Origin: Picochlorum sp. SENEW3
Lineage: Eukaryota
DNA length: 20,000 bases
Direction: 5' to 3'
Assembly: GCA_034226945.1 (NCBI GenBank)
Contig: CP120458.1
Coordinates: 1,109,627-1,129,626 of the forward strand
In this document: piece by piece, positions 1,561 to 20,000 of the stretch
How the letters are laid out: every line of letters begins with the position of its first letter
How positions within the stretch are numbered: the stretch's first letter is position 1
Translations under genes and position numbers: made by a program
The notes under the pieces: generated by a model
Databases searched by the model: none
The model's input: only the letters and a program-made list of their open reading frames with translations
What the model was told of the DNA's origin: nothing

Positions 1561-2987
1561 ATGGTGGCGACAGTGCACGCCATTGTCCTCGTGGACGCTG
1601 CACGGGAACTGGGTGCGCTCACTGCGGACAACAAGGGGTGTCCAGTCGGCGTTCTTTTACCCATAGCAAATAAACCAATGATAAACTATGTTTTAGAGAC
1701 ATTGAGCAGGTCCGGAATCGTCAATGTGACTCTGGTGCGTGCCAATTTTATATTTTTTTTTGTCCTGCTGCATTCTTGGGTGCTCTCCTGTTCAATCCTC
1801 ATGCGACCTCGGTGCCTGTCATCGTGTAGGCTGGAAGTAATGAGGATTCCATGCGTTTGTTGTCGGAATGGTGTCGTTCCGGGTATTCAGGTCCTTGCGT
1901 CGTAGACACCTTGTGTGACGGGAACTGCGGGAAGGCCCCCGTGAGCCTCATTCGCCAACTCCTTCCCAAACTGACAGGATGCGAGAATATAGTCATTATG
2001 GAGGGCAATGTAGTCACCGATCTGGCGCTTAGGGCGCAGATGCTGGCCCACGATATGAAGGAGGCGCTTCTGACCATGGTTGTGGGGAAGGCACCTGTGG
2101 AGACAGGAGATTCCGGAAAGAGTGTCGCTCCGACCGACTACTTTAGCATACAGCCAGATGGGGTGATATCTGTATATTGCCATGCCCAAGAAAAATTGCG
2201 GGACGTTAGGATTGCGGAAGCGTGTCTGTCAAAGCATGTCCACCTGACCATTCGAAAGGACTGCAGGGATATGAAGACGTATATTTTCCGCAGGAACAAG
2301 CTATCTTCTATTTTAGAAGAGAATCCTGGATTAACGGATATCCAGAAGCACCTGATTCCGTACCTAGTCAGGTATCAACTGGTGAGTAGCAACAAGGTGG
2401 GCAACTCCATGGCGACCCTCGATAGAACCAGCAGTACAAACCTGACAGCTTGCTCTGGCAGCGAGTCTCACCTCCACTTACAGTCGATGAAACACGATTC
2501 TCAGCAACAGGCTCACGCTGTGATCGCGTACAGGGTTCCGCAAGACGTGTATTGTGAGCTGATTGATTCTCTGGCCTCGTATTCCAGTGCCAATAGGGAC
2601 GTGTTAGCACCTCACATCGCCAGCAAATTTATCGATTTGAAGCCGAATGCTCGATCTGATGCCTTTATAGATAGTCCAGTAGAGTTTGGAAATAAAGTCA
2701 CGGTTGGTAACGGAAGTATTGTGGGCCGAGGTAGTACCTTGGCAGACAGATGCAGCATCAAGCGCTCGGTCATTGGACCATCCTGTCACATTGGAGCGAG
2801 CTCCAAAATCATCAATTGCGTTATACATGATGGAGTCAATATAGGAGACGGTTGTCACATCCAAAACTCCATCATCTGTTGCAATGCGGTCATTGCCAGC
2901 AAGATTTCCATGAAGGACTGCCAAGTCGGTGCTGAGGTGACTTTAGCCGATCCAGGCAATTACAAATCCGAGGAATTTTTCGATTGA
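1561..2987 (+). CDS. EIF2B3: Translation initiation factor eIF2B subunit gamma; exons 1561-1734 and 1830-2987, ~443 aa
   Basis: N-terminal degenerate nucleotidyltransferase-like domain (AIVLVD...LLPIANKPMINYVLETL) and C-terminal hexapeptide left-handed beta-helix (VGNGSIVGRGSTLADRCSIKRSVIGPSCHIGASSKIINCVI). It lacks the GGxGTRL motif of GDP-mannose pyrophosphorylase and the C-terminal W2 domain of eIF2B epsilon. Confidence 0.88.
1735..1829 (+). other. Spliceosomal intron (95 nt, phase 0) of eIF2B gamma
   Basis: CTG|GTGCGT...T-tract...GTGTAG|GCT joins ORF 1561 to ORF 1851-2987 in frame. Confidence 0.88.
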
Positions 2988-3009
2988 TTGATCCTTTTAT
3001 GATGTGGTG

Positions 3010-3014
3010 TGTAA
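3010..3014 (+). terminator. TGTAA green-algal polyadenylation signal of eIF2B gamma
   Basis: TGTAA ~23 nt after the stop codon; UGUAA is the established chlorophyte near-upstream poly(A) element. Confidence 0.65.
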
Positions 3015-3030
3015 ATAAATAAATAAATAT

Positions 3031-3858
3031 TCATGGCATGATGCGAATCATGGCGAAGAACAGCGGCCTAGGAAACAGCCGAGAAAGACCTGTTGCTGCG
3101 GGGGTCTCCTCTTGGTACCCGAGCCCAACCAATACCCCGGGACCCACGACGCGCACATAATCAGTAAAGTCTCCATCGAAAGGAGGAGGGTTCTTTCTGG
3201 GTCCGACCCATCCAAACTCTGATGCAAGTGCTGCAAGTTCCCCTTCCTCCTCCTCCGGGAGGGCATAGGACAATACCATATCACATGTGTCTGACAACAT
3301 GGGCACCAGAGAACCGCCGACGGCAGCCTTGAAGTACAGAGGGCCTGGGTACCCTCTGTTCTTCAGAACATTTCCATGGAAAACCCTGCCATAGATATTA
3401 GGGTGGGGAGTCTCCTTGTCCTCGCCAGGCATGGAGAAGAAGGCCTTTTCAAAATACTCTTGCCCCAACAGCCTGATGGGCAACGCTGCCCTGCCACGGT
3501 ATCGAACGAGGCTAGAGTCTTCGCCGGGTAGATCATTCCAAATGCTGTAGGATGGGACTTTGGACGAAGAAATATCCGCGATGGAAGCCTCGTGCCGTTG
3601 TCCCGCCAACCGCCACAGTCGTAAAATATCTGCGTTCGTCAACTCATCCAGCATTTTCACTCTATCTTCCTCTGGTATCTCATCAATCTTATTCCATAAC
3701 AGAAGCCCGAGGTTCACACTGTCTTTGCTGTAAGGCACGAGAGTCTCAGCAGTTTTCACCAGATTGACGACACTCTTGACCGCGCTGGACCGCGCAATCC
3801 CCAGATGCCTCGTTTGACCGTCCAGACGGGTATATTTCCATTGCATGCCGACCACCAT
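3031..3858 (-). CDS. Hypothetical protein, 275 aa
   Basis: Long uninterrupted ORF with globular-protein composition filling the space between two real genes; no upstream in-frame ATG; family not recognised. Confidence 0.8.
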   Translation of the reverse strand: MVVGMQWKYTRLDGQTRHLGIARSSAVKSVVNLVKTAETLVPYSKDSVNLGLLLWNKIDEIPEEDRVKMLDELTNADILRLWRLAGQRHEASIADISSSKVPSYSIWNDLPGEDSSLVRYRGRAALPIRLLGQEYFEKAFFSMPGEDKETPHPNIYGRVFHGNVLKNRGYPGPLYFKAAVGGSLVPMLSDTCDMVLSYALPEEEEGELAALASEFGWVGPRKNPPPFDGDFTDYVRVVGPGVLVGLGYQEETPAATGLSRLFPRPLFFAMIRIMP

Positions 3859-3949
3859 CTCGTTCGAGGGCCCTCTGCGCCGACAGACTTCTGTTCGGTG
3901 GAACCGCGAGGGGCTTGTACATGGACGGTCTTTCCCAGATGAACAATTC

Positions 3950-3966
3950 TTACAATATCAATTACA
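3950..3966 (-). terminator. Two TGTAA polyadenylation signals of the sulfotransferase-like gene
   Basis: TTACA at 3950-3954 and 3962-3966 on the + strand, ~17-33 nt past the stop at 3983. Confidence 0.6.
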
Positions 3967-3982
3967 ATGTCATGTATATTCA

Positions 3983-5146
3983 TCAATAGATGACGTCATA
4001 TCCGAGCAGCTTTTCGAAGGTGGGATTCATCCTCGCATTGACCGCTTCTACGAGGTGCGATGTCTCTGTGTCTCTTTCCCGAGGATCCTCCGTTTCCTTC
4101 TCTAGTAGGGTATGGGCCCGAAAGTACACACTCCTTTCAAAGTAGTCCTTCGGAGCCATACTAGTACCAGATTGCGCCCTTCCATGATACCCGGTCAACA
4201 CGGTTGGCATCTCTCCTTTCATGGTCCACCCAGTCAAATTCTGCACGGCCCGAACAAAAGCCTCCTGCTGCATGGGCAACACATTCTCCTCCGCTCGAAC
4301 GACCATCACACAGTTGCTAGATGTGATTGCTGACTTTAAATGGTTGCAAAACTTTTTTATTCGTAGGTCGAAAATGTCCTCAAATGACTCGCCCGGAGTG
4401 ATGTGTGCACCTCTCTGCCAGGGAGTCGAGACAAACTCCAGAGGGCCCTTCCTACTCGCTCGGATCTGCGCTGAGTCGCAGAAGTAGCAGTCTCGCATCA
4501 TCGACCTGACCCAGTCGTATGCATTGCGAATGGAAATGACCGTTAGCCCGGGATAGAAACGCCCATCGTCCTGCTGTGAATTGTGTTTATGATTGTTCAG
4601 ACCAAATTCGCGCTGGAATTCCGCAACTTTCACCCACGGAAATCGCTTTCGGATTTTTTCTTTCGATTCCAATATGACGTCGAAATTCGCATGGACGAGG
4701 TCTGCAGCGGCATTCGAGCCACAATGCCTCTCCCCAAGAATGTGAAAGTGTCTTGACACCTGTCCTGTGCATTTCTCATTCACCGAGACGCCCTCCGGGA
4801 CTCTGCAAACAGAGATCAAAGCATCCATATCAACAGCTTTCATGTATTGATGCACCAGGCCAGCGTATCTCCTCTGCTCTTCAGGCTTTGTGGACCCAGC
4901 ACCGTCCTGCAGCTTGTTGTCACCAGGACGCACTTTGCGGCCCTGTAGACCCGAATTCTCAGCTGCCAAGTTGCTTGCGGAGAGACCATACAGCCCCTTC
5001 CACAGGAGAATAACAATCACGAGGACGGTCGCGAGCGCCTGTGCTACCTGCCACAACCCCGCTGAGACGTTCTTCTTCTTCTTCCTCTTGTTCTTCGCTT
5101 GCACGGAAAACAGCCCATGGCCCGATTTCCTCTCGCTCCTTTGCAT
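3983..5146 (-). CDS. Type II membrane (probably Golgi) sulfotransferase-like protein, 387 aa
   Basis: Basic cytosolic tail (KNKRKKKKN), one TM helix (ALATVLVIVILLW), stem, then a 5'-PSB-like motif (FHILGERHCGSN) and a 3'-PB-like motif (VISIRNAYDWVRSM) of PAPS-dependent sulfotransferases. Confidence 0.72.
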   Translation of the reverse strand: MQRSERKSGHGLFSVQAKNKRKKKKNVSAGLWQVAQALATVLVIVILLWKGLYGLSASNLAAENSGLQGRKVRPGDNKLQDGAGSTKPEEQRRYAGLVHQYMKAVDMDALISVCRVPEGVSVNEKCTGQVSRHFHILGERHCGSNAAADLVHANFDVILESKEKIRKRFPWVKVAEFQREFGLNNHKHNSQQDDGRFYPGLTVISIRNAYDWVRSMMRDCYFCDSAQIRASRKGPLEFVSTPWQRGAHITPGESFEDIFDLRIKKFCNHLKSAITSSNCVMVVRAEENVLPMQQEAFVRAVQNLTGWTMKGEMPTVLTGYHGRAQSGTSMAPKDYFERSVYFRAHTLLEKETEDPRERDTETSHLVEAVNARMNPTFEKLLGYDVIY

Positions 5147-5609
5147 CTATCTGTCCTATTGATATTGATACTACATGATATTAGAACAATTATGTTCCAG
5201 CCTCGTGCTCAAGCTTCACCTAGGGCTTCTCATCGTTGGCCATGGCCAGCTCAGAGTTCCCAGTGGGAATCAACGATCTGTTGGCGGTTTTGTCAACGAG
5301 CACCAGAGATACCACGATGTCCTCCAATTGGTGGAATGCACGGCTACAACCTCGAGAATGAATACATAAAGTAGAAATTTTGTGAATTGGTCGACTGATT
5401 CTCGCAGAAGGTATAATTGTCTACCACAAGTCACCCAAACTCCTTTGGACCACACACTGCCAAGTGGTGAGAGGGTTGGGACTTTGGGAACACAGTTGGA
5501 TGCGAATGATATTATATTTGAGCATTTACTATCTTAATTATAACTGACTCTGGAGCGATCGTTACGTGCGTTGATCGGGTACGGTCGAGATACTTGAGTC
5601 GAAGAAGAT

Positions 5610-7634
5610 ATGGAGGGAACTACCACGCTCTCTGCGGAGGAGGGAAGCCTTCTTTGCCAGGGAGGGTACGCAGAGAAAGGTGAGGAAGGAAGAATGCCAT
5701 TGTCCAAGGATGAGGTGGCACCCGCGTTGACGCCTGGGAGCGTACCAGAAGTTCAACAAGGGACGTTTGGTGAGGATGCTCTTCCTTCCAATCTGCACCA
5801 GATACATGCTGGTAAGAGCGACCACATGAGCAATGAACCATTGATCGCATCATCAGAGGTACGTGTCGAGAAGTTTCTCCAGGGTGGGGTTGTGTTCCTG
5901 CTACAGAGGGCAACTGGGACAACTTTTTTTTTGTGTGTGATAGGATTCCAGGAGTATCTCGAGCACGCTCCTGACATGGATATGATACGATGTGTGCAGG
6001 AAAATTTGAGTGACGGAATGAATCTGTTAAACATGACCAATCGCACTGGAATGGATGGAGGATCTCCGAACAGGGTTGGCATGGCCAAATCCTCCAACGA
6101 TGGCACAGGCACGTCTGCTGATGAGTTTTCGGGAGCACATGAAACAGAAGGTGGAGGGATTGGATCCAATAGGATGGTACCGCAATTTTCAAGGTCATTG
6201 CCAACCGTGGGATGCCAGGGCATTATCTCCAGTGAGGCCAGCATGTTCTCCTCATCACAGAGCGACTCTCCTACTCGATTTCTGTGGATTGGAAACCTCA
6301 CACCCATGGCGACTCGGCCAGTACTGTGCACTATTTTTGAAAGGTTTGGCCCACTGGAGGATTTGATAGCGTTTCCCTCCAGAATGTATGCATTCGTGAC
6401 GTACCAGCACACTGAGAGTGCGGTGAAGGCCTTGCAGTCCATCCAGGGCGTGGTAATCAAAGATATCACGGGCGAGAAAGGCATGATCATCAAGTATAGA
6501 CCGGAGAGAAAGGCTGCTACCCAGTCGATGGACGAATCCAGCGGCAGATCGCATGCTGGAGCTGACGTGGATGTTGAGCCATCTCCGAGAATCTGGTTGG
6601 GAAATATAGCTCCAACAGCAACAGCAGCGAATCTTCAGAGTGTGCTGGGTCGGTTTGGCCCGCTAGTAGATGCAGCTGTATTTCCAGCGCGTATTGGTCC
6701 CCTGGGATATGCGTTTGTGAAATTTGAGAGACTCGAAGATGCCATTAATGCATACACCACGTTGAACAATGCAGTTGTACCAGCTTTGTCAGGCTCCAAA
6801 CAGGTTAAAATGAGGTATAAACCAGTCACAGAAGGTGTTCCAGCACGAGATACTGCTCTTGATGCCTTGCAAGCATCCATTCCATCAAGGCACATTTGGA
6901 TTGGGAACGTCACGCAGAAACCCTCAGAGGAGGTGTTGATGAGGATTTTCTCTCGTTTTGGAACCATCGAGTCAGCCAGAGTGTTTTCAGCAAAGTCATA
7001 CGCGTTCGTGAATTTCTACGAGATCTCCTCGGCGATTGAAGCTATCACCAAGTTGGATGGAGTTGCAGTGCCTGTCCTGACAGGCCTGAAGCCTCTGGTC
7101 ATGAGATATCAGCATGACGCCAATGCCCCAAGCAATGCTGCAAACATAAATCAGCAGCTCAATAACAAGATGTTGGAAATCCTATCGCGGTCCAGAATGG
7201 TCCCTGATTCTCAGCAGAGTCACTTGAGAAGCCAAGTCTCTCTTCCCCAGCAGATGTTGGCTCAGTCTTTTTCCATGCACGTTGATAATGCTGCGCAGGC
7301 TGCTAGCACACAACACCAAGATCAGCTCAGGTTTTTGGGTCAGCCTTTGCCCGCACATGCGGGAGATTCGTCTGCAATATCCACAGTCTTGCAAAATCTA
7401 GCAGCCCTTGCACCAGCAGCAAACCCTGCTCCTCCGATGTTTTCCCAAGGATATCAGAGTGCACACACGCAGGTCAATACTGCAGAGCAGACTTTGCTCC
7501 ACGAAAATGTGTGGCGCCAGGAAGATCAGTGGATCCCAAGAGCCAGCAGCATGCCATCCATGGCACAGGCAGATAATGTATCTCTCCATCTTCCAGACAC
7601 CGGTTTCCACAAGCCTTGGGATGGCAAATTCTAG
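5610..7634 (+). CDS. RNA-binding protein with three RRM domains and a Q/S/A-rich C-terminus (674 aa unspliced, ~627 aa if 5859-5999 is spliced)
   Basis: Three RNP2/RNP1 pairs: FLWIGNL/MYAFVTY, IWLGNI/GYAFVKF, IWIGNV/SYAFVNF, each followed by a similar G-x-K-x(3)-[MI][RK]Y beta4 segment. Confidence 0.93.
   Translation: MEGTTTLSAEEGSLLCQGGYAEKGEEGRMPLSKDEVAPALTPGSVPEVQQGTFGEDALPSNLHQIHAGKSDHMSNEPLIASSEVRVEKFLQGGVVFLLQRATGTTFFLCVIGFQEYLEHAPDMDMIRCVQENLSDGMNLLNMTNRTGMDGGSPNRVGMAKSSNDGTGTSADEFSGAHETEGGGIGSNRMVPQFSRSLPTVGCQGIISSEASMFSSSQSDSPTRFLWIGNLTPMATRPVLCTIFERFGPLEDLIAFPSRMYAFVTYQHTESAVKALQSIQGVVIKDITGEKGMIIKYRPERKAATQSMDESSGRSHAGADVDVEPSPRIWLGNIAPTATAANLQSVLGRFGPLVDAAVFPARIGPLGYAFVKFERLEDAINAYTTLNNAVVPALSGSKQVKMRYKPVTEGVPARDTALDALQASIPSRHIWIGNVTQKPSEEVLMRIFSRFGTIESARVFSAKSYAFVNFYEISSAIEAITKLDGVAVPVLTGLKPLVMRYQHDANAPSNAANINQQLNNKMLEILSRSRMVPDSQQSHLRSQVSLPQQMLAQSFSMHVDNAAQAASTQHQDQLRFLGQPLPAHAGDSSAISTVLQNLAALAPAANPAPPMFSQGYQSAHTQVNTAEQTLLHENVWRQEDQWIPRASSMPSMAQADNVSLHLPDTGFHKPWDGKF
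5859..5999 (+). other. Probable in-frame, stop-free intron (141 nt) in the RRM gene
   Basis: GAG|GTACGT donor, T-run at ~5923-5932, CTGAC branch-like site at 5971, TGTGCAG|GAA acceptor; length divisible by 3. Confidence 0.65.
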
Positions 7635-7783
7635 AGCTTCTAATAGAAGTTCCCGTCAGTACAGTGGACAGGTGTTTTTGATAAAATGACACATGAACAT
7701 GAATACAGAATTTTTTCTCGCAGAATGAATACCGATTCACCGGAGGTGGTATTTTATTTTGTACAAATATACAATTACACATT

Positions 7784-7903
7784 TTAACACTGCATGGATA
7801 CTCCATCGATGGATCTGCTCCATTGAATGATCTTGTCCCATGACAGGAAGCTGCTCCAAGATGGCCTGATGATCTTACCATCACTTCGTCCCACCACGCT
7901 CAT
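7784..7903 (-). CDS. Candidate small protein or terminal exon, 39 aa (MSVVGRSDGKIIRPSWSSFLSWDKIIQWSRSIDGVSMQC)
   Basis: ATG-TAA ORF below the ORF-track cutoff, followed within ~5 nt by TGTAA (7779-7775); no homology recognised. Confidence 0.3.
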   Translation of the reverse strand: MSVVGRSDGKIIRPSWSSFLSWDKIIQWSRSIDGVSMQC

Positions 7904-8099
7904 ATCTGGCACGTCTTCTCTCAGTCAGCAGAATCCTGTCAAATTTTTAATAATATCGGTGATTGGTGGCATTATTGCAACGACGAGGAGCATAGACTCT
8001 ATTTGTTGTCGCAGTCAACGTGATTCAAACGCGGGAACGTCATTGCAAACGTGATTACTCATTTAGATTTGGTCATCAATTCATTTCTTTTCCATAGAA

Positions 8100-9219
8100 A
8101 TGAGTTACAGCATGCTGGATGATGACCCTCGGGGTTTCAGGTGAGCAAACGCGTGCTTTTTGCGTGATGGCCAAAATTGTCGCCAGACAAGCAGACGCTA
8201 TCGCAGCGATTCTTGTACCGCGCGTTTTAATCGATATTTCTTTTCGTATATAGGAAGAAGAAGAGCTTCGCTTCTCGTTTGCTGAGACTTCACAGCCTGC
8301 TCGCTTGGCTGTTGGTGTTTGTTCTGGTCGTGTTGTTTTGGAAGACCAGGACATCCCTGATGAAACAGGTTGCAGAGCTAAAAGATTTTTCTGATTCCAC
8401 TCAAAGCGAAACGTTCGAGAAAATATCAAAGATGAACGAGAATATAGGAGCCAAGAACCGTGAAATTGCCGAGTTGAGCAGAGCACAGAGAGCTGATAAA
8501 AAGACCATCTCACAGGCACGTGCACATTTGTATTGCGACGATGTATGGCATAACGCTAACCTCTATTATTGTATACATTGCAGTGTGAGGTTGAGAAATC
8601 CAACCTGATGAGCGAGAGAGACCAATTATCCACCAAATACGATGGCTGCACAAAGGAAACACAATCTTTGAAGCAGCAGTTGGAATCTCTTCGTGTGGAG
8701 GCAGAGCAGAATCACCAGGTGCATACCGATACCCATCAGATGAAAGATACTAGGATTCAAGATCTGGAGAATCAGGTCAAGAACCTCGCAGACCAACTGA
8801 ATGCACAGAGGAATGTCAATACGCAGCAGCAGCAGCAGGCCAACAGGGAGACACAAACTGTGGATTCCAACAATGTGCGTCGAGAACCACGACGACAGAA
8901 TAACAATGTTGAGGCCGGCAATTCGAACAACAATGTGCAGCAAAATAGCCCTGTCAAAAGAGCAGAAAATGAAAATTCCAACAGTGTGCAACAAGAGCAG
9001 CAGCAGCAGGGCATTCCTAGTAAACGAAGAGGGCAGCGAAGTCCCGACGAACAAAGTAATGGCAACATCCGAATCACAGATTTGCCTGATGAGCAGAAAG
9101 ATGTTGGATCTGGCCGTGAAAACAGGCCGCTACCCAAGCCTACTCGTGGAAGAAAGAAAAAGTCCATGGGCATGCTGAAGGAGCACATGGGCATCCACGT
9201 GGGGGATGAAGAATATTAA
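8100..9219 (+). CDS. Type II membrane coiled-coil protein with N/Q-rich disordered tail (GOLM1/CASC4-like architecture); exons 8100-8140, 8254-8515, 8584-9219, ~312 aa
   Basis: Spliced product MSYSMLDDDPRGFR-KKKSFASRLLRLHSLLAWLLVFVLVVLFWK (TM), then a heptad-rich E/Q/K/L region and a Q/N-rich tail; both introns restore frame. Confidence 0.8.
8141..8253 (+). other. Intron 1 (113 nt, phase 2)
   Basis: CAG|GTGAGC...TTTCTTTTCGTATATAG|G, in frame with ORF 8279-8608. Confidence 0.8.
8516..8583 (+). other. Intron 2, non-canonical GC-AG (68 nt, phase 0)
   Basis: CAG|GCACGT donor, GCTAAC branch site at 8555-8560, TTGCAG|TGT acceptor; joins ORF 8279 to ORF 8569 in frame. Confidence 0.72.
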
Positions 9220-9965
9220 AGTACATTTAAAATTTAATTCTCACGAGAAAATCGAGCGCCCAGTCAAAACCCATTCAGACTGTGGTGCTGATCGCGATGA
9301 CGTCCTTGGTCCTCGATCAGGTAACCCATTTCCCCGTGGCCAATTTAGAGAGTGTAATGGCATTTCAGGCTATTGGATTTAGTTCCAGTGGTTGAGTTCC
9401 ACTGCACCCTGCGGTCAGGAAAGAACAAAAAAAGTCAATGGGAGGCCTCATTCTCCATGGTGACAGAGAATCGTCCTCCGACGAGAATCCGAGAGTGGAG
9501 ATTTCTTGCTTTTGCAACAGACATTGGGGGAGATTCGACGCAGCATTCCAGTTTGGCGGACCATCAGTTGAAAAGTGCCGCGATGAGGTCTTGCTGTGTG
9601 ACCCTGCCCATCAAGAAACGATATTCAGATGGAACTGTTTGCTGTTTGTTGCTGTAGAAAATGCTGTTTTCGTCTTCTTGCTGTGTGTAAAAAAGCGTGC
9701 AGTAGACGTCACTCCCGTTATCGGAAATGAACGCAATGAAATTTTGTCGACCCACGTCTCTCCCTTCTATAACAGTCGTGATAATGGCAGTCTAACTGGT
9801 CACCTTTTTTTACTGTCTCTTTTTACGAACGAAGAGAGCAACCAACGTGGCTTCTTCTTCCGGTCCAGTAGTTCGATGGACCGGACCGTCGAGCGTCTCC
9901 GTGGTTCGCGTCAGAAAGTATCTTCTTCGACGCCAATGTCAACCAACTGTTCCAGTTTTGGCCCG

Positions 9966-10780
9966 TGGTCGTCCTTTTTTATTGTGTCTTTTTACAGACG
10001 GAAACACGACGAGCGTTTTGTTGAAATTGTGTCTCCCGTCGAATCGATGCCAGGAGCGGACATCTCTCAAAGAAGACAAAAGAGACCCTGTGGCTACCCT
10101 CCGCTCTCAATACCCAATCAAAGTCTCCTTTCCCTATAATGCTGGGCAAAAACACGCTTCCTTCTACCCGTATTACTATGAACCTATAGCATGGTGTACT
10201 TCCAGCAATCGAGCCGACCACAGATACTCTCAACAAGCAAGCGTGGCATTCGTGCTCTTGGCGCAACACACTCACTGCCACCCGTCTGCTTGAGCTTGGT
10301 TGTGTTCTTCTGCCGCCTCGTTGACTTGATTCAACAGTATTGCAATTTTAATCAACGATTCATGCACAAACCCATCAGGAGAGAGAGGTCCTGGACGTCG
10401 TGGCTCTGTCCAGTGTGATTGCCAAGGCATTGCCGTGGAACGGTGCGGGACCCTTCTCTGTGAATGTGGCCATACGTGGGTCGTATGATGGACTTATTAT
10501 GAACCTATGAATCATATTAATGACCCTTCCTGCCCATGGGTGACAGCTCTGCAGGCCCCTCCTCCTCGTCCCAACTAATGTGACGCGAACGGAATTGACG
10601 ACGACCAGCTGTGTTTTGAATGGAGACTTTCATTCGTCGTGGTGTCGGCAGGACGTTTTTGCAAGTATAATAATCCCATATTCAATGTAATTGAACACTA
10701 GAGCGATCGATACACACTCCCAAGTACCCAAGTGTTTTTTTTTCTCCTGCTGTAATTGAACACAATAAAAAATCGTGACC
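9966..10780 (+). mobile_element. ~815-bp TIR-bounded module, copy 1 (MITE/Pack-MULE-like)
   Basis: Left GGTCGTCCTTTTTTATTGTGTCTTTTTACAG vs right (rev-comp) GGTCACGATTTTTTATTGTGTTCAATTACAG; flanks TTTGGCCCGT / CATGGCCGGT (7/10); homologous along its length to 10803-11600. Confidence 0.6.
10047..10578 (+). pseudogene. Frameshifted cargo ORF of module 1 (unknown family)
   Basis: MPGAD... NTLTATRLLELG... AKALPWNGAG... MNHINDPSCPWVTALQAPPPRPN*, spread over different frames and conserved with modules 2 and 3. Confidence 0.45.
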
Positions 10781-10802
10781 CATGGCCGGTGTGCCGGTGT
10801 GG

Positions 10803-11600
10803 TGGTCGCCTGTTTTTATTGTGTCTGTTTACGGACGGAGAGACGACGAGAAGTAGTATGCGTGATGTCTCTCGTCGAATGGATGCCAGGAGCGGACACT
10901 GTCAGTGAGACCAACACACAGACTCTCTACTCCGCTCCCATCAAGTACCCAAGTACTCCTACTCCCAGAGGTAATAAACACCATTATTAACCTGTTACAT
11001 GGTTTACGTGTCCACAATTTTGCGAGCCGACCACAGATACTCCTCTCAACAAGCAAGCTTGGCATTAGTTGTTGGCATTCGTGCCAACACACACACAACC
11101 ATTCGCTTCCTTGAGCTTTGGAGTAGTCTGGCGTCTCCTTGATTTGATTCAGAGGGGTTGGAATGAAAATCAATGAGCGATTCGTACAGAAACCCACCAT
11201 AAGAAGGTCCTGGACGTCGGGGCATGTTGCGAAGGTAATGCCGTGGAACGGTCAAGGACACCACTCTCTCGCTCTCGCTCGCTCTCTGGAAGTAGCCATA
11301 CATGGGTGGTATAATTGGTTTAGTATGAGTCATATTAATGGCCCTTCCTGCCCATGGGTGACAGCTCTGCAGGCCCCTCCTCCTCTTCCCAACCAATGTG
11401 AACGGAATTGACGACGACCACCCACACAGGCTGTGTTTTTAATAGGGACTTTCATTCGTCGCGGTGTCAGCAGGGATTATACGTTTTTGCAAGTATAATT
11501 CCATGTTCAATGCAATTGGACACTCTAGACTGATCGATACACACTCCCAAGTACCCAAGTGTTTTTCTGCTGTAATTGAACACAATAAAAAATCGTGACC
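10803..11600 (+). mobile_element. ~800-bp TIR-bounded module, copy 2
   Basis: Same termini; shares long identical blocks with copy 1 (e.g. CCCTTCCTGCCCATGGGTGACAGCTCTGCAGGCCCCTCCTCCTC; ATCGATACACACTCCCAAGTACCCAAGTGTTTTT). Confidence 0.6.
10883..11411 (+). pseudogene. Frameshifted cargo ORF of module 2
   Basis: MPGAD... NTHTTIRFLELW... HVAKVMPWNGQG... MSHINGPSCPWVTALQAPPPLPN. Confidence 0.45.
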
Positions 11601-12049
11601 TTTCAGATTTAACGACAATTTTAACGATTTCACCCCAGTGTTTTGTGCTGTAATTGGGGATCTCTTATACCGCACATTTTGCCACCCTAGAGATTGTCGA
11701 TAAGACAATAGCAGTCGCATCAGACCACAATTATTTCCCTTTCCAAGCCAAACAGAAGGATATGAATCCGATGGAGATTTTGATCCCAAACAAGATTGGA
11801 TCTGGGACAAAGACGTCCAGTTATCGCATTTTCGTCATTTTTTGAAACGGGACCGTCAGAGCCTTTTGGCCTGAAAGTGACATATATTGTAGAAAATAGT
11901 ATAAATAAGCCAAAATTTTGTTTATGGGGCCTATAGCCCATCCTATTCGGTGCAGTTGCGAATCGAAGATTGCGCCATTTTGCCTATCTCGCGATTGCGG
12001 GCCCCGATTGCCCCGATGGAACGTCAAAACGAAAGAATAAACATATAGT

Positions 12050-12950
12050 ATGGTGAATCGAGAGTGAGATGAGAAGAAGAAGGCGATCAGGAGAAGCCAG
12101 AGCGCTTTGAAAATTTGCTAAATTTGATGATTGCATAGTTTGTGCGCTTTATCGCTCAAGACTAGAATAAGTGGAAACATTTTTTCTCAAATATTAACGA
12201 GATTTAAATCTTTTTTCATATGGTGGTTTGAGGAGAGAGAAAAAGGGAACCAAAGGTCCGTTAGTCAGAGGTGACCAGACCTCACCTCTGTCCCACGAAT
12301 CCATGGTGAGCGAAGAGAGGCAGTCGAGAGCATCTAGGTGTGCGATTCGTGACCTCATACGACACTCTTGTCCTCTTACTCCAGACTATATTGCTATATT
12401 TGCTTGTATTATGCGCAAATGGGAAAAAGAAAGCTTTAGGGAGTGAGAAACAGTGGGTACCAAACGCATATGCTCTCGTAGCTGAAGAACCAAGATACCA
12501 CTCAGTAAGGAGCTGGGTTGGTTGTGTATGGCTGTGATTGTGACACATGAAGATGCTTTGCATTCACCGAGTGTTTAGATAGACCATGAATATGACAGAA
12601 AGTATCAGGTATGGATACAGGAGGTATTGTGAATGATTCTCAGAGTCCAAGTGCCCATACCCAACGACTACGCAGGTTCCAGCCCTTGACTCATAGGCCA
12701 TGAGCACACCATTACAATGGATAAAGCCCAATTGGGGCCACAGAATGGCATCGCGGCAGAAGACAGCGTCAAGTTGGTGTTTTCAAGCGAAGCTGAAGAT
12801 GCCCGTGCAAAGCAGTTGATTACGATTCCTGGTGTAAATTGTCCTTCAAATGGCCAATATTGGCGAATAATTGCCCATAAGTTGATTTAAATTGCATTTT
12901 ACCCGATATCATCGCAAGCCACGCCTTTGATGAAGAGATCCCCCCGGCCC
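12050..12950 (+). pseudogene. Possible decayed coding sequence, family unknown
   Basis: Complex, non-repetitive sequence with protein-like stretches interrupted by stops; includes EDARAKQLITIPGV at ~12795-12837. Confidence 0.2.
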
Positions 12951-13003
12951 TTGTTGAACACAATAAAAATCGTGACCTTGCCAAACTTGTCAAACTTGTC
13001 GCG

Positions 13004-15048
13004 TGGTCGTCTTTTTTATTGTGTCTTTTTACGGACTAATATCACGACGAGCGTTTTGCTTCTGAAATTGTGTCTCCGGTCGAATGGATGACAGGAGCGC
13101 ACCACAGTTCAGTGAGAGAGCCACAGGGTTGAACAAGCTAGCGTGCTCTTGGCGCAACACACTCACTGCCACCCGCCTGCTTGAGCTTGGTTTGCTTTCT
13201 TCTGTCGTCTCCTTGACTTCATTCGATACTATTTTAGATGGTGGAGTGACAATCAACGATAAATACAAAAATCCACGAGGAGAAGAGGCTCCTCGACGTC
13301 GCAGCATGTTGCCATGGCTTTGTCGTGAACGGTTGGGGACAGTTTTCTCCCTCTGTAGCCATGCGCTGGTGCTATACTATCAAAATTGATTTATTATTAT
13401 TATGAATACATGAATCGTCTTCATGGCTCTTCTTTTTCTTACCCCCCTTGGGGAGCGACTCCTATCTGCTGCGATGCTAGTGGAATTGACGACGATATAC
13501 AGGATATTCTATAGTAGTAGAAACATAGAACATTAGCTCATGTCGCAATGCCAAATTTTTGATGCGTCGAATGTTGCGGTCCCTTGCGTGATGAGGTCCC
13601 AGATACAGTGGTGGCAATAACGCATGTGTGACGCATGCTTGTTCCAAATTCACAGACTGATTTCGCATCACGAGGTATGATGACGCATCCTGTGAGGTAT
13701 GCTGTGCCCATGCCCAGTTGGGGGCAGTGACGGCAATATTGAGGGGCATTGAATTATATTTATTCCTTCTATGACGGTACATAGATCTTATCAGGCGATA
13801 GTCTGCCCCCAGTATGGACAGTGCATGTTGTAGGCCTGTGGGATGCATCCTCTAGGCCTCTTGTGGTGAACCTACCCCTATTGTTTGTCGTCGAACGTTG
13901 CTCTTTCGCTCTGTGCTTTCCGCTCTTTCTTTTGTTTTTCCTTTTTCGAACAGATGGATCGATTTGTCCTGCGAGCCTGGCGCGTGGCTTCTTCTTTTTT
14001 CTTCTCTTGCCTCGGTTTGGGGCTTTGCCTGCTGTTGCAATCATCTTTTCAACTCCTTTTCTTCGTTCTTGGCGGTCATTTGAATCTCGACTATTCGACA
14101 CGGTGTCAAATACTAGTGGAGCCCCATTCAACAACCAACCTATTGGTGAGGGTGAGCTCACCTCCTTTCTTGTCACAGGCTCTCTTTGTATTGTTGTTCC
14201 AATCAATGTTGATTGGTAAAGAAACGCATGGGAATACATTCTGTTTGTTCTTTGTTTTCGTTTTGTTTGTTGTTGTGTAGCAGAGAAGCCTTTCTTTTTT
14301 TCTTCTGTAGTTGTAGCTCCTACATTCATTCATCCAGGTCAGAGCAGCTCTTGTGATGGCCACATTCCCTAGTCTATTGGTGGACAGGCAGCACCTATCA
14401 TTTCAATCAAAACCAGATTGATTCTGCTATACATCTTTTGTTCTGTTCATTTTGTACAAGGATACGACATACTACTAGAAATACTGCTCAAAAAGCAGTC
14501 GCGTGTCAGGACAGCAGGGTGTCTTTGCATGATTCCCCCAACAGATCTCTGTGTGAATGTCCACATCCATCCTGTATTCACACGTTGTTCTGCTTACCAT
14601 ACGATAGAATAGATCGATTAGAACATATTTTTTGATTATTCGTGTTATTGTTGTGTTTTCTGAATCCACGAATCAGTGTGTGTATGGAGCTGTTTTGCTG
14701 TTTTGTTGGTTGAGTCTGTGGACGGTGGGTGAGCACACATTGTGTGCTATTGCTATTGCTACTACCCCTCTCTTCGTTGTTTCTACCTCTCGGGTAGCAA
14801 TGGCACTGATTATTGTTGTTATTTAGTAGTCGTAGTAGTCGTAGTAAACCAACAGTAATAGTTGTAGAGAAGAAGAAGAACAAAAGGTGTAGTAGTAGAG
14901 CTTTTCTTTCTTCCAAGGTCTCCCTCTCATAGGGTAGATAGACTGAAGGCATCGGTCCGACGTGGTATTGGACCGATCGATAAGGTCGGACTTCTAATTT
15001 TTTTCAGGCGTGTCCATCGTAAATGAGGACAATAAAAAAGGACGACCA
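13004..15048. mobile_element. ~2.05-kb TIR-bounded module; left arm is a third, internally deleted copy of the 800-bp unit (13004-~13497), right arm reads inward on the minus strand
   Basis: TGGTCGTCTTTTTTATTGTGTCTTTTTACGG at 13004 and rev-comp TGGTCGTCCTTTTTTATTGTCCTCATTTACG ending 15048; both followed inward by GTCG(A/G)A..GATG; no TSD found. Confidence 0.45.
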
Positions 15049-16443
15049 TCAAAACCACACGCTTTAACCGCTCGGCCACACTCAGCGTGCTTTTTGTGGC
15101 TTTTTTCATCTCCCATCACAATGGAGTTTTGACCGGTGGTGGTAGTTTCTTTTCGATGTTGGTTTCCTTTGTCCGATGGAAGACCCCTTCTGATGGGAGC
15201 GCCTGGATATGTGGAGCACACAGCAGTCAGGAGGAGAGCTGATGAGCAGTCTTTCTTTGCTGTAAAAACACGACGAGATCTTCCCCATTCAAAGACGCTG
15301 CGCAGTTATATACTACTATTACTATACTCATTGCAACTCATGAAGTCTATGTAAGTAAGTAAGTACGCGTGCCTCGCATGATGATGATATTGAGAGATGC
15401 TCCAGCATTGCAGCTGCTGCAATGTTCCTCTGGTGCTTATCTCAGCTTGCTTGTTGTTGTTGTTGTGAAGACGACGATTTCTTTTCATTTTATTCTTGTT
15501 TCATGTCTTCTATTTATTCTTTTTATATATACTACTACTATTATACCTCTCTCTATCTCATATGTTGTCTGTGTAGGGTAGCTCCTTGTTGTTCTTCTTG
15601 TGTGCATGAGACTTGTGTGCTTTGTTCTGTTCTGTTATTATTGGTTGGTATTATTGCTCGTGTCGATTGTTGTGCATGTTATTATCATTATTACTACTAC
15701 TACTATTATGAGATATCTACTTTCTCCTTTTGATTGCTTTGCTTCTTTGTTGGTGTGTTGTCTCATGTTCTGTAGCAGCAGCAGCAGTAGTAGTAGTAGT
15801 GGTGGTGGTGTGAATGCTAGATGGTTGTTGATTTATTGTATTCTTATTGTTGTTGTTATGTAGGGTGGCTGTTTTCTACACCCTTGCTTGGTTTGGTTGG
15901 TATGTTTTTGGTGGTGGTCCCAGTCAAGTCCTTTAAGAAGTCAAGGGGTGATGGGAAGATCGCCATTCTTCCTGTTCCGAGATGCTCCCTCTTCTTCAGA
16001 CATGTTTGTTGTTTTGCCCTGGTTATGCGACGTTTTTTTTACTGATGGGTGTTTATTATTATTATTATTATTATTGGTATTCTTCTTACTTACTTACTTA
16101 CTTAATATTGTGTCCTTCTGTTGATGTTGCTGTTGTTGTTGTGAAAAAGGACAGAGATTCTTTTCATTCATGCATAGCATAGTATAGTATAGATTGTTGA
16201 TGTGTCATTCTGATTATTATGAGATTTTTATCTTTTGATTTTGCTTTGCTTTGCTTTGCTTTTGTGTTGGTTGCTGTTGTTGTTGTCTTCTCTTGTTGTT
16301 GTAGTAGTAGTAGTAGTAGTAGTAGGAGCAGTAGTAGTAGCAGAGCTTGTGGTGTGCCGTGTCTTTTGTTGTTGTTGTTGTCGTTGTATATATATATAGT
16401 ATAGGTGGTTATTATACTACTTATTCTTCTTCTTGATATTGTA
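14988..16443 (+). repeat. ~1.46-kb diverged direct repeat, copy A (microsatellite-rich)
   Basis: Colinear with 18219-19695: shared CCGATGGAAGACCCCTTCTGATGGGAGCGCCTGGATATGTGGAGCACACAGCAGTCAGGAGGAG, GTGATGGGAAGATCGCCATTCTTC and GTGAAAAAGGACAGAGATTCTTTTCATTCATGCATAG, ending CTTCTTGATATTGTA. Confidence 0.93.
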
Positions 16444-17300
16444 AAGGGGTGTTCAGAACCTCAAACTTTTGGCTTGGGGTCCCTTTTCTGGTCGCGTGAG
16501 AGGCGTTTCGCTGGGTCTGTCGCTTTCAGCAGGCTTGTATATCTAATATCTCAAATGCCCTCTCCCAGATTTGCCATACTCGCGACGACCGACCAGATAG
16601 CGAGGGGTGGTTGAGAAGACCAGTGCAACAGCCTTGGGGTCACTTTTCTGGTCGCGTGAGACATCTTCCTCGGGGTCTGTTACTTTCAGCAGGCTTGTAT
16701 ATATAATATCTCAAATGCCCTCTCCCAGATTTGCCATACTCGCGACGACCGACCAGATAGCGAGGGGTGGTTGAGAAGGCAGCTGCAACACCCTTGGGGT
16801 CACTTTTCTGGCCGCATGAGACATCTTCCTCTGGGTCTGTCACATTCAGCAGGCTTGTATATATAATATCTCAAATGCCCTCTCCCGGATTTGCCATACT
16901 CGCGACGACCGACCAGATAGCGAGGGGTGGTTGGGAAGGCAGCTGCAACACCATTGGGGTCACTTTTCTGGCCGCATGAGACATCTTCCTCTGGGTCTGT
17001 CGCATTCAGCAGGCTTGTATATATAATATCTCAAATGCCCTCTCCCGGATTTGCCATACTCGCGACGACCGACCAGATAGCGAGGGGTGGTTGGGAAGGC
17101 AGCTGCAACACCATTGGGGTCACTTTTCTGGCCGCATGAGACATCTTCCTCTGGGTCTGTCGCATTCAGCAGGCTTGTATATATAATATCTCAAATGCCC
17201 TCTCCCGGATTTGCCATACTCGCGACGACCGACCAGATAGCAAGGGGTGTGTTTGGGAGTCACTTCCCAACGCTTGGGATACGATTGTGGGCACGTGAGC
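16444..17300. repeat. Tandem array of a 160-bp unit, five full copies (starting 16473, 16633, 16793, 16953, 17113) plus degenerate ends
   Basis: Exact 160-nt periodicity of TTGGGGTCACTTTTCTGG...CAGCAGGCTTGTATATATAATATCTCAAATGCCCTCTCCC...CTCGCGACGACCGACCAGATAGCGAGGGGTG. Confidence 0.97.
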
Positions 17301-17329
17301 ACTATATCGTAGCGTCCGTGGTGCTACTA

Positions 17330-17683
17330 AGCCTTGCATGTATCCGAAAAACCTATGCAAGGAGCCAGATGGCGCATTTACATGGCGAGGACCCACCTTG
17401 GCCACCGCATGTTTTTGCAATGGGCCAGGAATCAAAGCACAAGCAGTTGCCTCAGACTCGAAGGTTGAAAGCTCTCACCCGTGGTTTGCCGGCTTTAGGC
17501 ATTTCATATGGACTTGATGAGAAGGAACTAGCAGTGTAAAGAGATTTCTCACTATCCATTGCCGGCATTAAGGAGTAGTTCGCGTCGCATTCACCAGTGT
17601 TCCCAACAGAATTCACAACAACCTCTGGGCAAAGCAACCCGTATAAGTTTGATTGCTGGAGGGAGAAATATATATCAATATAA
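17330..17683 (+). pseudogene. Possible decayed coding fragment after the array
   Basis: One frame reads ...RRLKALTRGLPALGISYGLDEKELAV*RDFSLSIAGIKE*FASHSPVFPTEF...KFDCWREKYISI* with two internal stops (17537, 17576); family not recognised. Confidence 0.22.
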
Positions 17684-18218
17684 GATAGAGGGTGGGAACC
17701 AACTTGACAAGAGTCCGTGGCTGTTTGGCACTGTTGTGATTGTTGTTGTCGTGACATTCCCGTGGGGAGGGTTGTTGTTGGGACCCTGTTGTGCTCCGTG
17801 GCGGTCAGCCATTCGCTTTTTTGACTGATATATAATTTTAAAGCAAGAATGACGCTCCTTCATGTCCATGGAGGAATATTCCGGGCGTGTTCGTCCCAAC
17901 CGTCGCGACGCGATCGGAAACGACGACCATTCGGTTCGTGACATCCATTCGACTCGGCACCGAATGAAATGGCCCTTAATATTGTTATATTTGTCCAATC
18001 ATCCAATACCAACAACCAATACTGCTATACACTGCCGGTGAGTGGCAAGGGTGTGGGATCACCGAGGCCACATGAGGCGTTGTGTGCAAGAAGGTGGCTG
18101 AGTGCGTTTTCTGTTTCGGGTCACATCTGCAGTGTTACCACCAAGTGTTGAATGTATCCAAAGAAACTATGAAAGGTGCCAAATGGTCCATTTATACAGC
18201 AGGGACATTGATGACGCC

Positions 18219-19695
18219 GGCCTTCTTCCTCTCGGGAGTGTCCGTCCGTAAATGAAGACAATAAAAAAGCGCGACCATGGTATTAGAGCCGGCTCTAAGG
18301 CACCCGTTCGGCCACACTCAGCGTGCTTTTCTCATCTCCCATCACAAGGGAAATTTGACCGGAGATATGATGGTAGTTTCTTTTTTCGTTGTTGTTTTTC
18401 CTCCTACTCCGATGGAAGACCCCTTCTGATGGGAGCGCCTGGATATGTGGAGCACACAGCAGTCAGGAGGAGGAGGAGGAGAGCTGTGCTGTGAAAGCAG
18501 TCTTTCTTTGCTATGAAACACGACCAGATCTTCCCATTTTTTCAACGAAGCGTCGCATTTATATGCTACCCTTATTACAGCAACACATGAAATCAACTGA
18601 AGGAAGCATGCCATGCATGGTGATGAGATACTTGTTCCAGCAATGGTGCAATGCCACTCTAGTGAGCTTGCCACAGCCTGGTTCTTGGTTGTTGTTGTTG
18701 TGAAGGAGACGATCTTTTTCATTCTTTTTCTTGTTTCATGTCTTCTATTTATTCTTTTTATATATGCTACTATTATTATACCTCTCTCTATCTCATATGG
18801 TGTCTGTGTAGGGTAGCTCCTGGTTCTTCTTCTTGTGTGTATGAGACTTGTGTGTTTCGTTCTGTCCTAGTGTCGAGTGGTTGTTATTGTTGCTCGTGTC
18901 GATTGTTGTTGTGCATGTTAATTATCATTATTACTATTATTTCTGTAACTATCATGAGATATTCACTTTCTTTTGATTGCTTTGCTTTGTTGGTGTGTTG
19001 TCTTGTGTTACAGTAGTAACAGTAGCAGTAGCAGAGCTTGTGGTGTGTGGTGTCCAAGGAGTTGTTTCAGGTGGTGTGCGACGCTTTGATGACTGCTTTA
19101 TTTTACTATATACAACACCCTTTTCTTGCTTGGTTTGGTTGGTATTTTTGTGGTGGTTCCCAGTGAAGTCAGTCAAGTCCAGGGATGGTGATGGGAAGAT
19201 CGCCATTCTTCTTGTTCCGAGATGCTCCCTCTTTCTTCCGAGGGCACCATCATCATCACCTGTTTGTTCCGCGTGGGTGTGCGACGTTTTTTTACATGAT
19301 GGGTGTTTATTATTATTATTATTATTGGTATTCTTCTTACTTACTTACTTAATATTGTGTCCTTCTGTTGTTGTTGTTGCTGTTGTGAAAAAGGACAGAG
19401 ATTCTTTTCATTCATGCATAGTATAGCATAGTATAGCATAGTATAGATTGTTGTTGTGTCATTATGATTATTATGAGATTTGTATCTTTTGATTTTGGTT
19501 TTGTTTTGCTTTGCTTTTGTGTTGGTTGCTGTTGTTGTTGTCTTCTCTTGTTGTTGTAGTAGTAGGAGGAGGAGGAGGAGCAGTAATAGTAGCAGAGCTT
19601 GTGGTGTGCCGTGTCTTTTGTTGTTGTCGTTGTCGTTGTTGTATATATAGTAGTAGGTGCTTATTATACTACTTATTCTTCTTCTTGATATTGTA
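18219..19695 (+). repeat. ~1.47-kb diverged direct repeat, copy B
   Basis: See copy A; differs by many indels in (TTA)n, (TAG)n, (TTG)n, (GGA)n and (ATAGY)n tracts. Confidence 0.93.
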
Positions 19696-19910
19696 TTGTA
19701 TATTCTGGTTCTTTTGGTGGTGTTTTTGGATGTTTTTTTGGTTGGTGTGTTTTTTTGGTTAGGGTATTTTGGTCTTGTTGGTGGTGTTTTTTCTTGGCTT
19801 TATTTTTGATTTTTTGGATATTTTCTTATTTTTGGGTAGTTTTTTGTTTGTTTTATTTAGAAATTGTGTTTATTTTTGTTTGTGTGGTGGGAAGTGGGGT
19901 GAATATGGTG
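19696..19910 (+). repeat. Extreme T/G-rich low-complexity tract
   Basis: ~200 nt with very few C residues (TTTTTGGTGGTGTTTTTGGATGTTTTTTTGGTTGG...). Confidence 0.8.
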
Positions 19911-20000
19911 TAATATACCCTCATTACCCTCCTGCCAAGAACGACGGTATGCACAGGGTATAGGGTATAGGGAGCAATACGTAACTGAACGAAGTACTGA

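Follow-up and report, generated by a model that had tools for sequence, protein, structure and literature searches.

A repeated 40-base motif forms the inverted ends of a non-coding element family in a repeat island of Picochlorum

Introduction

Why does a motif of about 40 bases recur, in both orientations, over a long gene-free part of a small algal genome? This question is raised by a 20,000-nucleotide (nt) stretch of Picochlorum sp. SENEW3 (NCBI GenBank assembly GCA_034226945.1, contig CP120458.1, positions 1,109,627 to 1,129,626 of the forward strand), which is hereafter called the window. From about 9.7 kb to its end, the window has no recognisable gene. This part, hereafter the island, is at least 10.8 kb long, and the window stops inside it. 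A first-pass annotation, made from the sequence alone, had described about 13 copies of the motif that divide the island into nested, back-to-back modules of 815, 798, 3181, 2045 and 3138 bp. It had proposed a family of mobile elements, possibly of the Mutator/Pack-MULE kind, that inserts next to or inside its own members, or else an array of recombination cassettes. Here, we analysed the motif, the units that it bounds and their relatives in public sequence data. The repeated motif makes up the inverted termini of a family of elements without coding capacity. The family is undescribed, but it is a fairly ordinary kind of repeat.

Picochlorum has one of the most compact genomes among the green algae, about 14-15 Mb with about 46% G+C (PMC12636532), and it is under biotechnology development. 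Its repeats have been published as percentages and are largely unclassified. In one account, 4.99% of the nuclear genome is assigned to transposable elements (1.87% are unclassified, and DNA transposons make up 0.35%), and the centromeres are placed only as 10-kb Hi-C bins (PMC11092101). In Picochlorum sp. BPE23, repeats are given as 9.72% (PMC12636532). Internal repeat areas are reported to occur in Picochlorum assemblies and to break them (PMC9615354). No description of the present motif family was found in the Picochlorum literature, a search that did not extend to Repbase/Dfam or to the supplementary repeat tables of PMC11092101.

Results

A profile trained on eight copies of the motif and run over the window with nhmmer found nine solid copies, with E values from 6e-9 to 3e-14. 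Four of them lie on the + strand, with starts at 9797, 9962/9966, 10801/10803 and 12999/13004, and five on the - strand, with outer ends at 10780, 11600, 12977, 15048 and 18277. These nine account for most of the 13 copies counted earlier. The copy with its outer end at 9752 is marginal (17 nt, E ~1), and three others, at 15140, 18371 and 17929, are unsupported. The degenerate + copies at 15140 and 18371 are absent from the profile search even at E<=5000, among the 29 matches listed, while the copy at 17929 is a mere 16-nt outer fragment (E 5.7), part of an internal block that repeats the heptamer GACGACC. The motif had also been said to be missing from the gene-dense part of the window and, in agreement, profile matches in 1-9700 are no better than E 8.6. 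With up to 3 mismatches allowed, a 27-nt core has four matches in the window, compared with 0 in 200 shuffles. A 29-nt degenerate pattern that describes both end types, GGTCRN{3,4}TTTTTATTGTSYYYNWTTAC, has seven window matches, also compared with 0 in 200 shuffles, so that chance is excluded for the motif. The same pattern gave 0 matches in a prokaryote genome collection and 0 in a viral collection; among metagenome contigs it gave 9 loci, every one of them related to the island of the window.

The motif forms the inverted termini, 35-45 nt in length, of non-coding units of 815, 798 and 2045 bp, which are named A1, A2 and E2, respectively. The units start with TGGTCG and finish with GACC or GACCA. 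When the first ~40 nt of one end are compared with the reverse complement of the other end, 28/41 positions agree in A1, 26/41 in A2 and 31/43 in E2. This inverted similarity ceases after ~40-45 nt, and the left and right profiles have nothing in common beyond ~45 nt. The modules of 815 bp (9966-10780) and 798 bp (10803-11600) are indeed homologous units, with an identity of 71% over 882 columns in self-BLAST. The 2045-bp module (13004-15048) belongs to this family too but is longer. It has in common with A1 and A2 its left 115 nt (85% to A1), its middle and a portion of its right-internal region, which the A-type profiles match with E values of 4e-32, 2e-80 and 0.0014, respectively. The A-type blocks of E2 run to ~13496 and are followed by ~1.5 kb of other repeated sequence and then by the right terminus. 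Both the right-internal block and the 115 nt at the left are common to A1, A2, E2 and the segment 17848-17957. The distance from the right-internal block to the right terminus varies from ~170 to ~1500 nt across the units, and in the segment 17848-17957 the motif copy at 18277 comes 280 nt after the block.

A1, A2, E2 and the fragments share one left-to-right orientation and are arranged head to tail. The earlier picture of back-to-back units in a non-coding family bounded by terminal inverted repeats (TIRs) is thus retained, with inverted ends at A1, A2, E2 and a small unit in the metagenome locus L007. The nesting is not: the units lie side by side in a single orientation and none is demonstrably within another, including A1 and A2 within the supposed 3181-bp module. 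The outer pair of that module, the solo left end at 9797 and the solo right end at 12977, has 22/41 end matches and no other support. The 3138-bp module has to be given up as well, as its left end at 15140 is unsupported and its length is the period of a 3.2-kb direct repeat.

This repeat, named B, is seen in self-BLAST between 15004-16443 and 18232-19695, which have 79% identity and are direct copies with a period of ~3.23 kb. The 3.2-kb unit is composed of the B body, a 160-bp satellite and an A-like segment that ends in the motif. The order of middle, right-internal block, right terminus and T/G-rich B body is also found in the metagenome loci L002, L004 and L009. All nine metagenome loci have matches, at 72-87%, to the B repeat and to the 17.2-17.9-kb segment. 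An alignment of the B-type motif comprises 11 copies, and conservation was calculated over the 8 that remain once L004, L005 and L009 are removed as near-duplicates. Over these 8 copies, the 31-nt motif has a pairwise identity of 96%. The 25 nt beyond its outer end have 43%, the next 100 nt 70%, and the upstream 100 nt 44%. A hypervariable stretch of 25 nt directly outside a conserved motif marks sharp boundaries. The left flanks of the B-type motif fall into four arrangements among the 11 copies. The blocks just past the B-type motif (15050-15232, 18278-18470 and their counterparts in the 9 metagenome loci) are conserved, and they have a 15-nt inverted repeat with one mismatch, whose arms are separated by ~70-100 nt, as well as a short hairpin with a T-run behind it. 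A structured RNA after the B-type motif was considered and rejected, as RNAalifold gave -4.6 kcal/mol for 11 sequences, with 3 pairs supported by double changes.

With the exception of L007, where the motif follows a stretch bearing open reading frames (ORFs), the contexts of the copies in the metagenome contigs are further parts of this repeat island. L007, which is the same locus as L005, contains at 4102-4257 a mini unit of 155 bp in which both termini enclose an 82-nt interior with no relation to A. The mini unit, the conserved motif and the variable flanks are the features that, judged from the sequences, most resemble transposon derivatives. A solo motif copy in L007 lies downstream of two ORFs on the same strand. 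About 1.3 kb upstream of this solo copy, a G+C-richer stretch at 1120-2718 contains an ORF of 532 amino acids. This ORF gave no sign of being a transposase: it has no Pfam family and found only itself and one 59% relative among the proteins searched.

The spacers between units are 22-26 nt long, and the left spacers of A1, A2 and E2 can be aligned with each other. The 22-nt spacer between A1 and A2 contains an exact 8-nt tandem duplication (10785-10792 equals 10793-10800), and the 26-nt spacer before E2 an exact 9-nt one (12982-12990 equals 12991-12999). In L002, L004 and L009, a variant right end has its last 10 nt tripled (L004 1210-1239). Each unit junction has a tandem duplication or triplication of 8-10 nt, whose sequence differs between junctions; templated end-joining or slippage at element ends could produce such duplications. 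Folded as DNA, the palindromes at the junctions give hairpins, with z -5.0 for 10741-10845 and z -2.5 for 12940-13042. The outermost heptamer of the termini, GACGACC, has 11 matches compared with 1.5 expected, and all are within the island: the unit termini and the internal blocks have 3 each, and the satellite units 5. The satellite at 16473-17249 has a period of 160 in Tandem Repeats Finder (TRF), with 4.9 copies and 95% matches, and the heptamer occurs once per unit, at 16584, 16744, 16904, 17064 and 17224. Such a recurrence in both units and satellite is as expected for a protein-binding site, as far as sequence can suggest one. The heptamer is the only link between the satellite and the elements.

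To look for duplicated target sites, the flanks of four units were compared, with a slide of up to 3 nt permitted at the ends; the null expectation is 0.0065 per unit for k>=9. Target-site duplications (TSDs) of 9-11 bp, which characterise Mutator elements and Pack-MULEs, have a candidate at only one of the 4 units, a 9-mer agreeing at 8/9 positions around A1; A2, E2 and the L007 mini unit have none. The 9-mer of A1 is ambiguous: the left spacers align between A1, A2 and E2, and a duplication of spacer plus unit also predicts it.

No coding capacity was found in the units. A1, A2 and E2 have no common ORF, and their insertions and deletions are not multiples of three. Among stop-to-stop frames of at least 50 amino acids in 8560-20000, 0/143 reach the Pfam cut-off; one low-complexity match has 17.2 bits against a cut-off of 27.8. 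By the same search, there is no transposase or recombinase in the window, as had been said, and captured gene fragments, another mark of Pack-MULEs, were not found either. The longest ORF of the island, 13769-14329, has one partial relative only. There is no tRNA in the window, and Rfam gave nothing at gathering scores; three CrcZ matches at E<=1 were set aside as chance, with ~16-20 bits against a gathering score of 95.

Parts of 9900-11700 are present in 20 public sequencing runs from 12 studies. Contigs of four of these runs (X1, X4, X11 and X13) were placed on 7000-20000 at 90% likeness. In X4, which is DNA-type, the genes at 7000-9417 are covered by two contigs with a depth of 23-26, while nearly all of the 1112 contigs placed fall on the island, where summed depths, which are not copy numbers, are 80-730; one island contig, at 13581-13760, alone has a depth of 133. 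X11, also DNA-type, gives 3-11 over the genes at 7000-9169 and 22-268 over most of the island. Contigs at least 90% alike accumulate on both A1 and A2, though these two are only 71% identical. These data hint that the whole island, and not merely its motif-bounded units, has many copies in the genome. The stretch 11774-12641 has no share in the contig excess, and the X4 depth over 11601-12935 does not exceed that of the neighbouring genes; the zero depth of X11 over 11774-12641 was not counted as evidence. The 1.3-kb segment 11601-12935 has no self-similarity in the window and ends at a solo right terminus. Contigs of X4 and X11 join 11600 to 12996 through 32 other letters, which include an 8-mer repeated three times. 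This joint is weak because one of its sides is only 22 letters long, and the contig may derive from another copy of the junction. Joints in X1 that skip 479-641 nt (in the satellite) and 3239-3240 nt (in the 3.2-kb repeat) have short sides, may be graph artefacts of repeats, and were not used as a sign of copy-number variation.

X13 is RNA-like by a program's guess and by a skip with GT..AG ends. Its contigs cover 11728-12360, 12632-12943, 13973-15095 and 17893-18109, and parts of the island are probably transcribed. The segment 11601-12935 may be a strain-variable transcribed insert. The near-zero depth of X13 over 15246-17415 and 18284-20000, which X4 and X11 cover, was not used to place transcript stops at the two B-type motif copies, as it comes from the contigs of one run, in which uncovered stretches do not count as evidence.

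The island contains motif-bounded units, the 3.2-kb tandem repeat, the 160-bp satellite and T/G-rich tracts (Table 1). Its + strand becomes progressively T/G-rich, with an AT skew down to -0.46 and a GC skew up to +0.35. The last tract listed is about 200 nt long; its part 19731-19830 is 84% identical to L002 1805-1905, and it is not a canonical telomere repeat.

Table 1 Features of the island, in window positions.
Feature	Positions	Strand	Basis
Marginal degenerate motif copy, right-end orientation	9725-9752	-	nhmmer 9741-9725, 17 nt, E ~1, not significant alone
Solo left-end motif copy, no recognisable unit body behind	9797-9844	+	nhmmer E 6e-9 to 1e-8; left-end profile matches 9797-9837 only
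Unit A1, 815 bp; left terminus ~9966-10005, right ~10744-10780	9966-10780	+	Self-BLAST, alignment, profile E 2e-13 and 2e-12
Spacer A1/A2, 22 nt	10781-10802	.	Sequence reading; hairpin with flanking termini
Unit A2, 798 bp	10803-11600	+	Self-BLAST, alignment, profiles
Family-unrelated segment, low summed run depth	11601-12935	.	No self-similarity; starts exactly at A2 right terminus
Solo right-end motif copy	12936-12977	-	nhmmer E 1e-9; right-end profile matches 12944-12979 only
Spacer, 26 nt	12978-13003	.	Sequence reading; hairpin with flanking termini
Unit E2, 2045 bp; right terminus 15013-15048	13004-15048	+	Left, mid and right-internal profiles
B repeat copy 1: motif at left edge, conserved blocks, T/G-rich low-complexity body	15004-16443	+	Self-BLAST
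160-bp satellite	16473-17249	+	TRF
A-like right-internal block, then inverted A left-subterminal fragment at 17933-17960	17848-17957	+	Right profile E 2e-7; left profile on - strand E 0.05
Right-end motif copy closing the A-like segment, abutting B copy 2	18240-18277	-	Best profile match of the window, E 3e-14
B repeat copy 2	18232-19695	+	Self-BLAST
T/G-only tract, almost C-free	19696-19900	+	Sequence reading; TRF period 17; L002 match

Discussion

The motif, the anatomy of the units, their single orientation, their absent coding capacity and the existence of relatives elsewhere are established by these results. From them we infer the mobility of the units, the way in which they were amplified and their chromosomal position. 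The reading that we favour, and to which we give about an even chance, is that of a non-autonomous TIR element family that was amplified mainly by duplication inside a probably subtelomeric repeat island. Sharp, conserved inverted termini, a reiterated heptamer, variable interiors and a mini unit point to a non-autonomous TIR family. The single orientation, the short and related spacers, the absent TSDs and the roughly even contig excess argue for duplication and recombination over nested or adjacent transposition. Duplication rather than insertion is also favoured by the contigs of at least 90% likeness that accumulate on both A1 and A2. The motif would then be the 35-45-nt TIR of non-coding, non-autonomous DNA elements in Picochlorum, which would have retained their ends and a few subterminal blocks around an interior of 82 nt to ~2 kb. 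The array would owe its origin mainly to duplication, tandem or segmental, and to recombination between copies of the motif, and not to nested transposition; any transposase that once moved the units would have its gene elsewhere. The island would most likely be subtelomeric, by analogy with other green algae, a placement to which we give about half the odds; otherwise it would be centromere-linked or another kind of repeat area. The unrecognised TIR family of the first-pass annotation is therefore kept as TIR-bounded and non-coding, while its insertion into its own members is not, as no nesting was found and duplication is favoured.

Several observations weigh against this interpretation. There is no consistent TSD, three of the four units having none. 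Neither an autonomous copy nor a transposase was seen in the window, and for want of a known autonomous partner the family cannot be assigned to a superfamily. Independent insertions would not usually give a uniform orientation with short, regular spacers. Weak homology in the B repeat extends ~70-100 nt to the left of the motif, so that the motif there is not a strict homology boundary. Telomere-type heptamer runs are lacking in the window and in the 9 loci, where there are isolated single matches only, and with no telomere repeat in view the chromosomal position is unproven. The contigs of the runs gave no clean empty site, the sole joint that spans a module being the unreliable one with a 22-letter side. 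Summed contig depth is not copy number, and X1 may be the window's own sample.

The island could also be a structural chromosomal repeat, subtelomeric or centromere-linked, that was never mobile. The motif and the heptamer would then be binding boxes for a chromatin or DNA-binding protein, and the pairs would be palindromic junctions homogenised by gene conversion, in arrays that change by unequal exchange. This would agree with the one orientation throughout and the mutually alignable spacers, with an X4 summed depth (again not copy number) that is fairly even over the island, motif-free parts included, with a motif that is 96% conserved even where there is no strict homology boundary, and with a heptamer that occurs once per 160-bp satellite unit. 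Green-algal subtelomeres are reported to hold comparable species-specific arrays that are not transposons (PMC8287924), and a repeat area is reported to split a chromosome assembly of Picochlorum sp. BPE23 (PMC9615354). However, the 155-bp mini unit and the occurrence of the same termini around unrelated interiors look like transposon derivatives, the hypervariable stretch begins exactly beyond the termini, and the motif has four different left-flank arrangements, so we regard a purely structural origin as rather unlikely. A further proposal is that the motif is mainly a signal for transcript 3' ends (polyadenylation or termination), in which case the pairs would be the convergent terminators of small non-coding transcription units. 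TGTAA is the green-algal poly(A) signal. Read outward, the motif has TGTAA or CGTAA, then ~10 nt, then AATAAAAAA, an A-run of the AATAAA type; TGTAA is present in both termini of A1 and in the right terminus of A2. The same pentamer lies 20-75 nt past the stop codon in 3/5 genes of the window and is rarer than expected in 1-9700, with 17 and 13 occurrences per strand compared with 24. A 1159-nt contig of X13 (13973-15095) crosses the motif at 15018-15048 and stops in a T-run 47 nt past it, another (12632-12943) ends just short of the solo motif at 12954-12977, and the solo motif of L007 follows two same-strand ORFs. With the pentamer, the outward A-run and TGTAA near 3/5 stop codons, the termini may serve as 3'-end signals, and this role need not be exclusive. 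As the main function of the motif it is unlikely, since a 31-nt block conserved at 96%, including its GC-rich outer part, exceeds the needs of known poly(A) signals, and the ordinary genes in 1-9219 lack the motif. Contigs give neither strand nor true ends, those of X13 come from one run whose RNA status is guessed, and the RNAalifold value of -4.6 kcal/mol over 11 sequences shows no conserved RNA structure.

Two proposals of the first-pass annotation make more specific claims about how units move. A Mutator-like or Pack-MULE family that inserts into and beside its own members would have units such as these, non-coding, with GG starts and CC ends, and with flanking repeats such as the 9-mer (8/9 positions) of A1. 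The TIRs of Mutator elements and Pack-MULEs are typically at least 100 bp long. Here the similarity of the ends covers only ~40 nt, A2, E2 and the mini unit of L007 have no flanking repeats, no fragments of captured genes were found, and none of the units is demonstrably nested. We therefore set aside the Mutator/Pack-MULE assignment as very improbable. Alternatively, the palindrome formed by right end, spacer and left end could be the site of a site-specific recombinase, with modules inserted and excised as circles. Such a cassette array would explain the single orientation, the precise ends, the missing TSDs and the junctions, which are imperfect, hairpin-capable palindromes with conserved arms and variable centres; moreover, the module 11601-12977 starts exactly at a right end and is closed by a second one. 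On the other hand, the window encodes no recombinase domain, and its modules lack coding capacity and are homologous to one another. Ordinary recombination between two direct motif copies would account for the module boundary just as well. We know of no recombinase cassette system of this type in eukaryotes, and we consider this explanation highly doubtful. A eukaryotic version, in which a recombinase encoded elsewhere would shuffle non-coding modules in one orientation, without TSDs, among islands at chromosome ends or centromeres, with the heptamer as its binding box, would be a long shot as well. Bacterial integron attC arrays consist of same-orientation modules and imperfect palindromes with conserved arms and variable centres, and the island resembles them in having same-orientation modules between imperfect palindromes. 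It differs from them in its eukaryote host, in the absence of an integrase from the window and in modules that are non-coding and interrelated. Helitrons and Helentrons were also considered. Helitron ends have a 5' TC, a 3' CTRR and a subterminal 3' hairpin, without inverted termini, while the present units begin with TGGTC, end with GACC or GACCA and have inverted termini, and this assignment was rejected.

A non-autonomous TIR family thus remains the reading that we prefer, and known systems of this kind allow it to be placed. The units resemble non-autonomous TIR elements, such as MITEs (miniature inverted-repeat transposable elements), in their ~40-nt inverted termini, in a heptamer reiterated subterminally, in conserved ends around interiors that vary or are deleted (155 bp to 2 kb), in their lack of coding capacity and in their apparently many copies. 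They differ in that the island units have no consistent TSD and all lie head to tail in repeat islands. The formation of tandem repeats and satellites from transposons is a known phenomenon, as reported for the foldback element Tetris in Drosophila virilis (PMC4079207) and reviewed in PMC6947457. As described there, Tetris-type arrays have inverted-repeat-bounded units in tandem and part of the element expanded to a satellite, to which the heptamer-bearing 160-bp satellite would correspond; the array in the window is short and heterogeneous (71%) by comparison, and its spacers have 8-10-nt tandem duplications.

Green-algal subtelomeres are reported to contain the Sultan and Spacer repeats and a G-rich microsatellite in Chlamydomonas, the 166-nt Subrel-I in the trebouxiophyte Coccomyxa, and transposons (PMC8287924). 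The island shares with those described in that report the species-specific tandem repeats of ~160-850 nt, conserved and probably transcribed spacer-like segments, G-rich tracts and transposon-like units by the last genes, and the 166-nt repeat of Coccomyxa is close in size to the 160-bp satellite. Sharing among genomic places would be a further likeness, one hinted at by the run contigs, which do not give copy numbers. In contrast to such subtelomeres, the window and the 9 loci have no telomere repeat, and the sequences are apparently unrelated. Sultan is stated not to be a transposon, and the sections that describe it make no mention of inverted termini (PMC8287924).

By itself, it is no surprise that a repeat island should hold a non-coding family with TIRs. 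The motif profile, the unit structure and the satellite could be used to map such islands on chromosome-level assemblies and to decide between subtelomere and centromere, and the strongly conserved 31-nt box gives a handle for seeking the protein that recognises it. Both the map and the protein would be useful for the design of artificial chromosomes and for understanding how small genomes confine repeats.

Genes next to the island

The genes in positions 1-9219 are eukaryotic and lie on both strands. They include those for a PP2A B56 subunit, an eIF2B-epsilon-like protein and a protein with three RNA recognition motifs (RRMs), which has 91% identity to a protein labelled Picochlorum sp. BPE23. 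A protein model of Prototheca wickerhamii, P0024, has RRM and B56 Pfam domains in one model, which suggests that the RRM and B56 genes are adjacent in this species as in the window, or that the annotation merged them. Two convergent gene ends, at 2987 and 3031, are separated by a gap of just 43 nt. In the gene that ends at 9219, a contig of X13 omits 113 nt with GT..AG ends at 8138/8252, which correspond to an intron. A second skip in X13, of 68 nt at 8512-8581, has CA..TG ends, and an alignment shift or a strain deletion may explain it.

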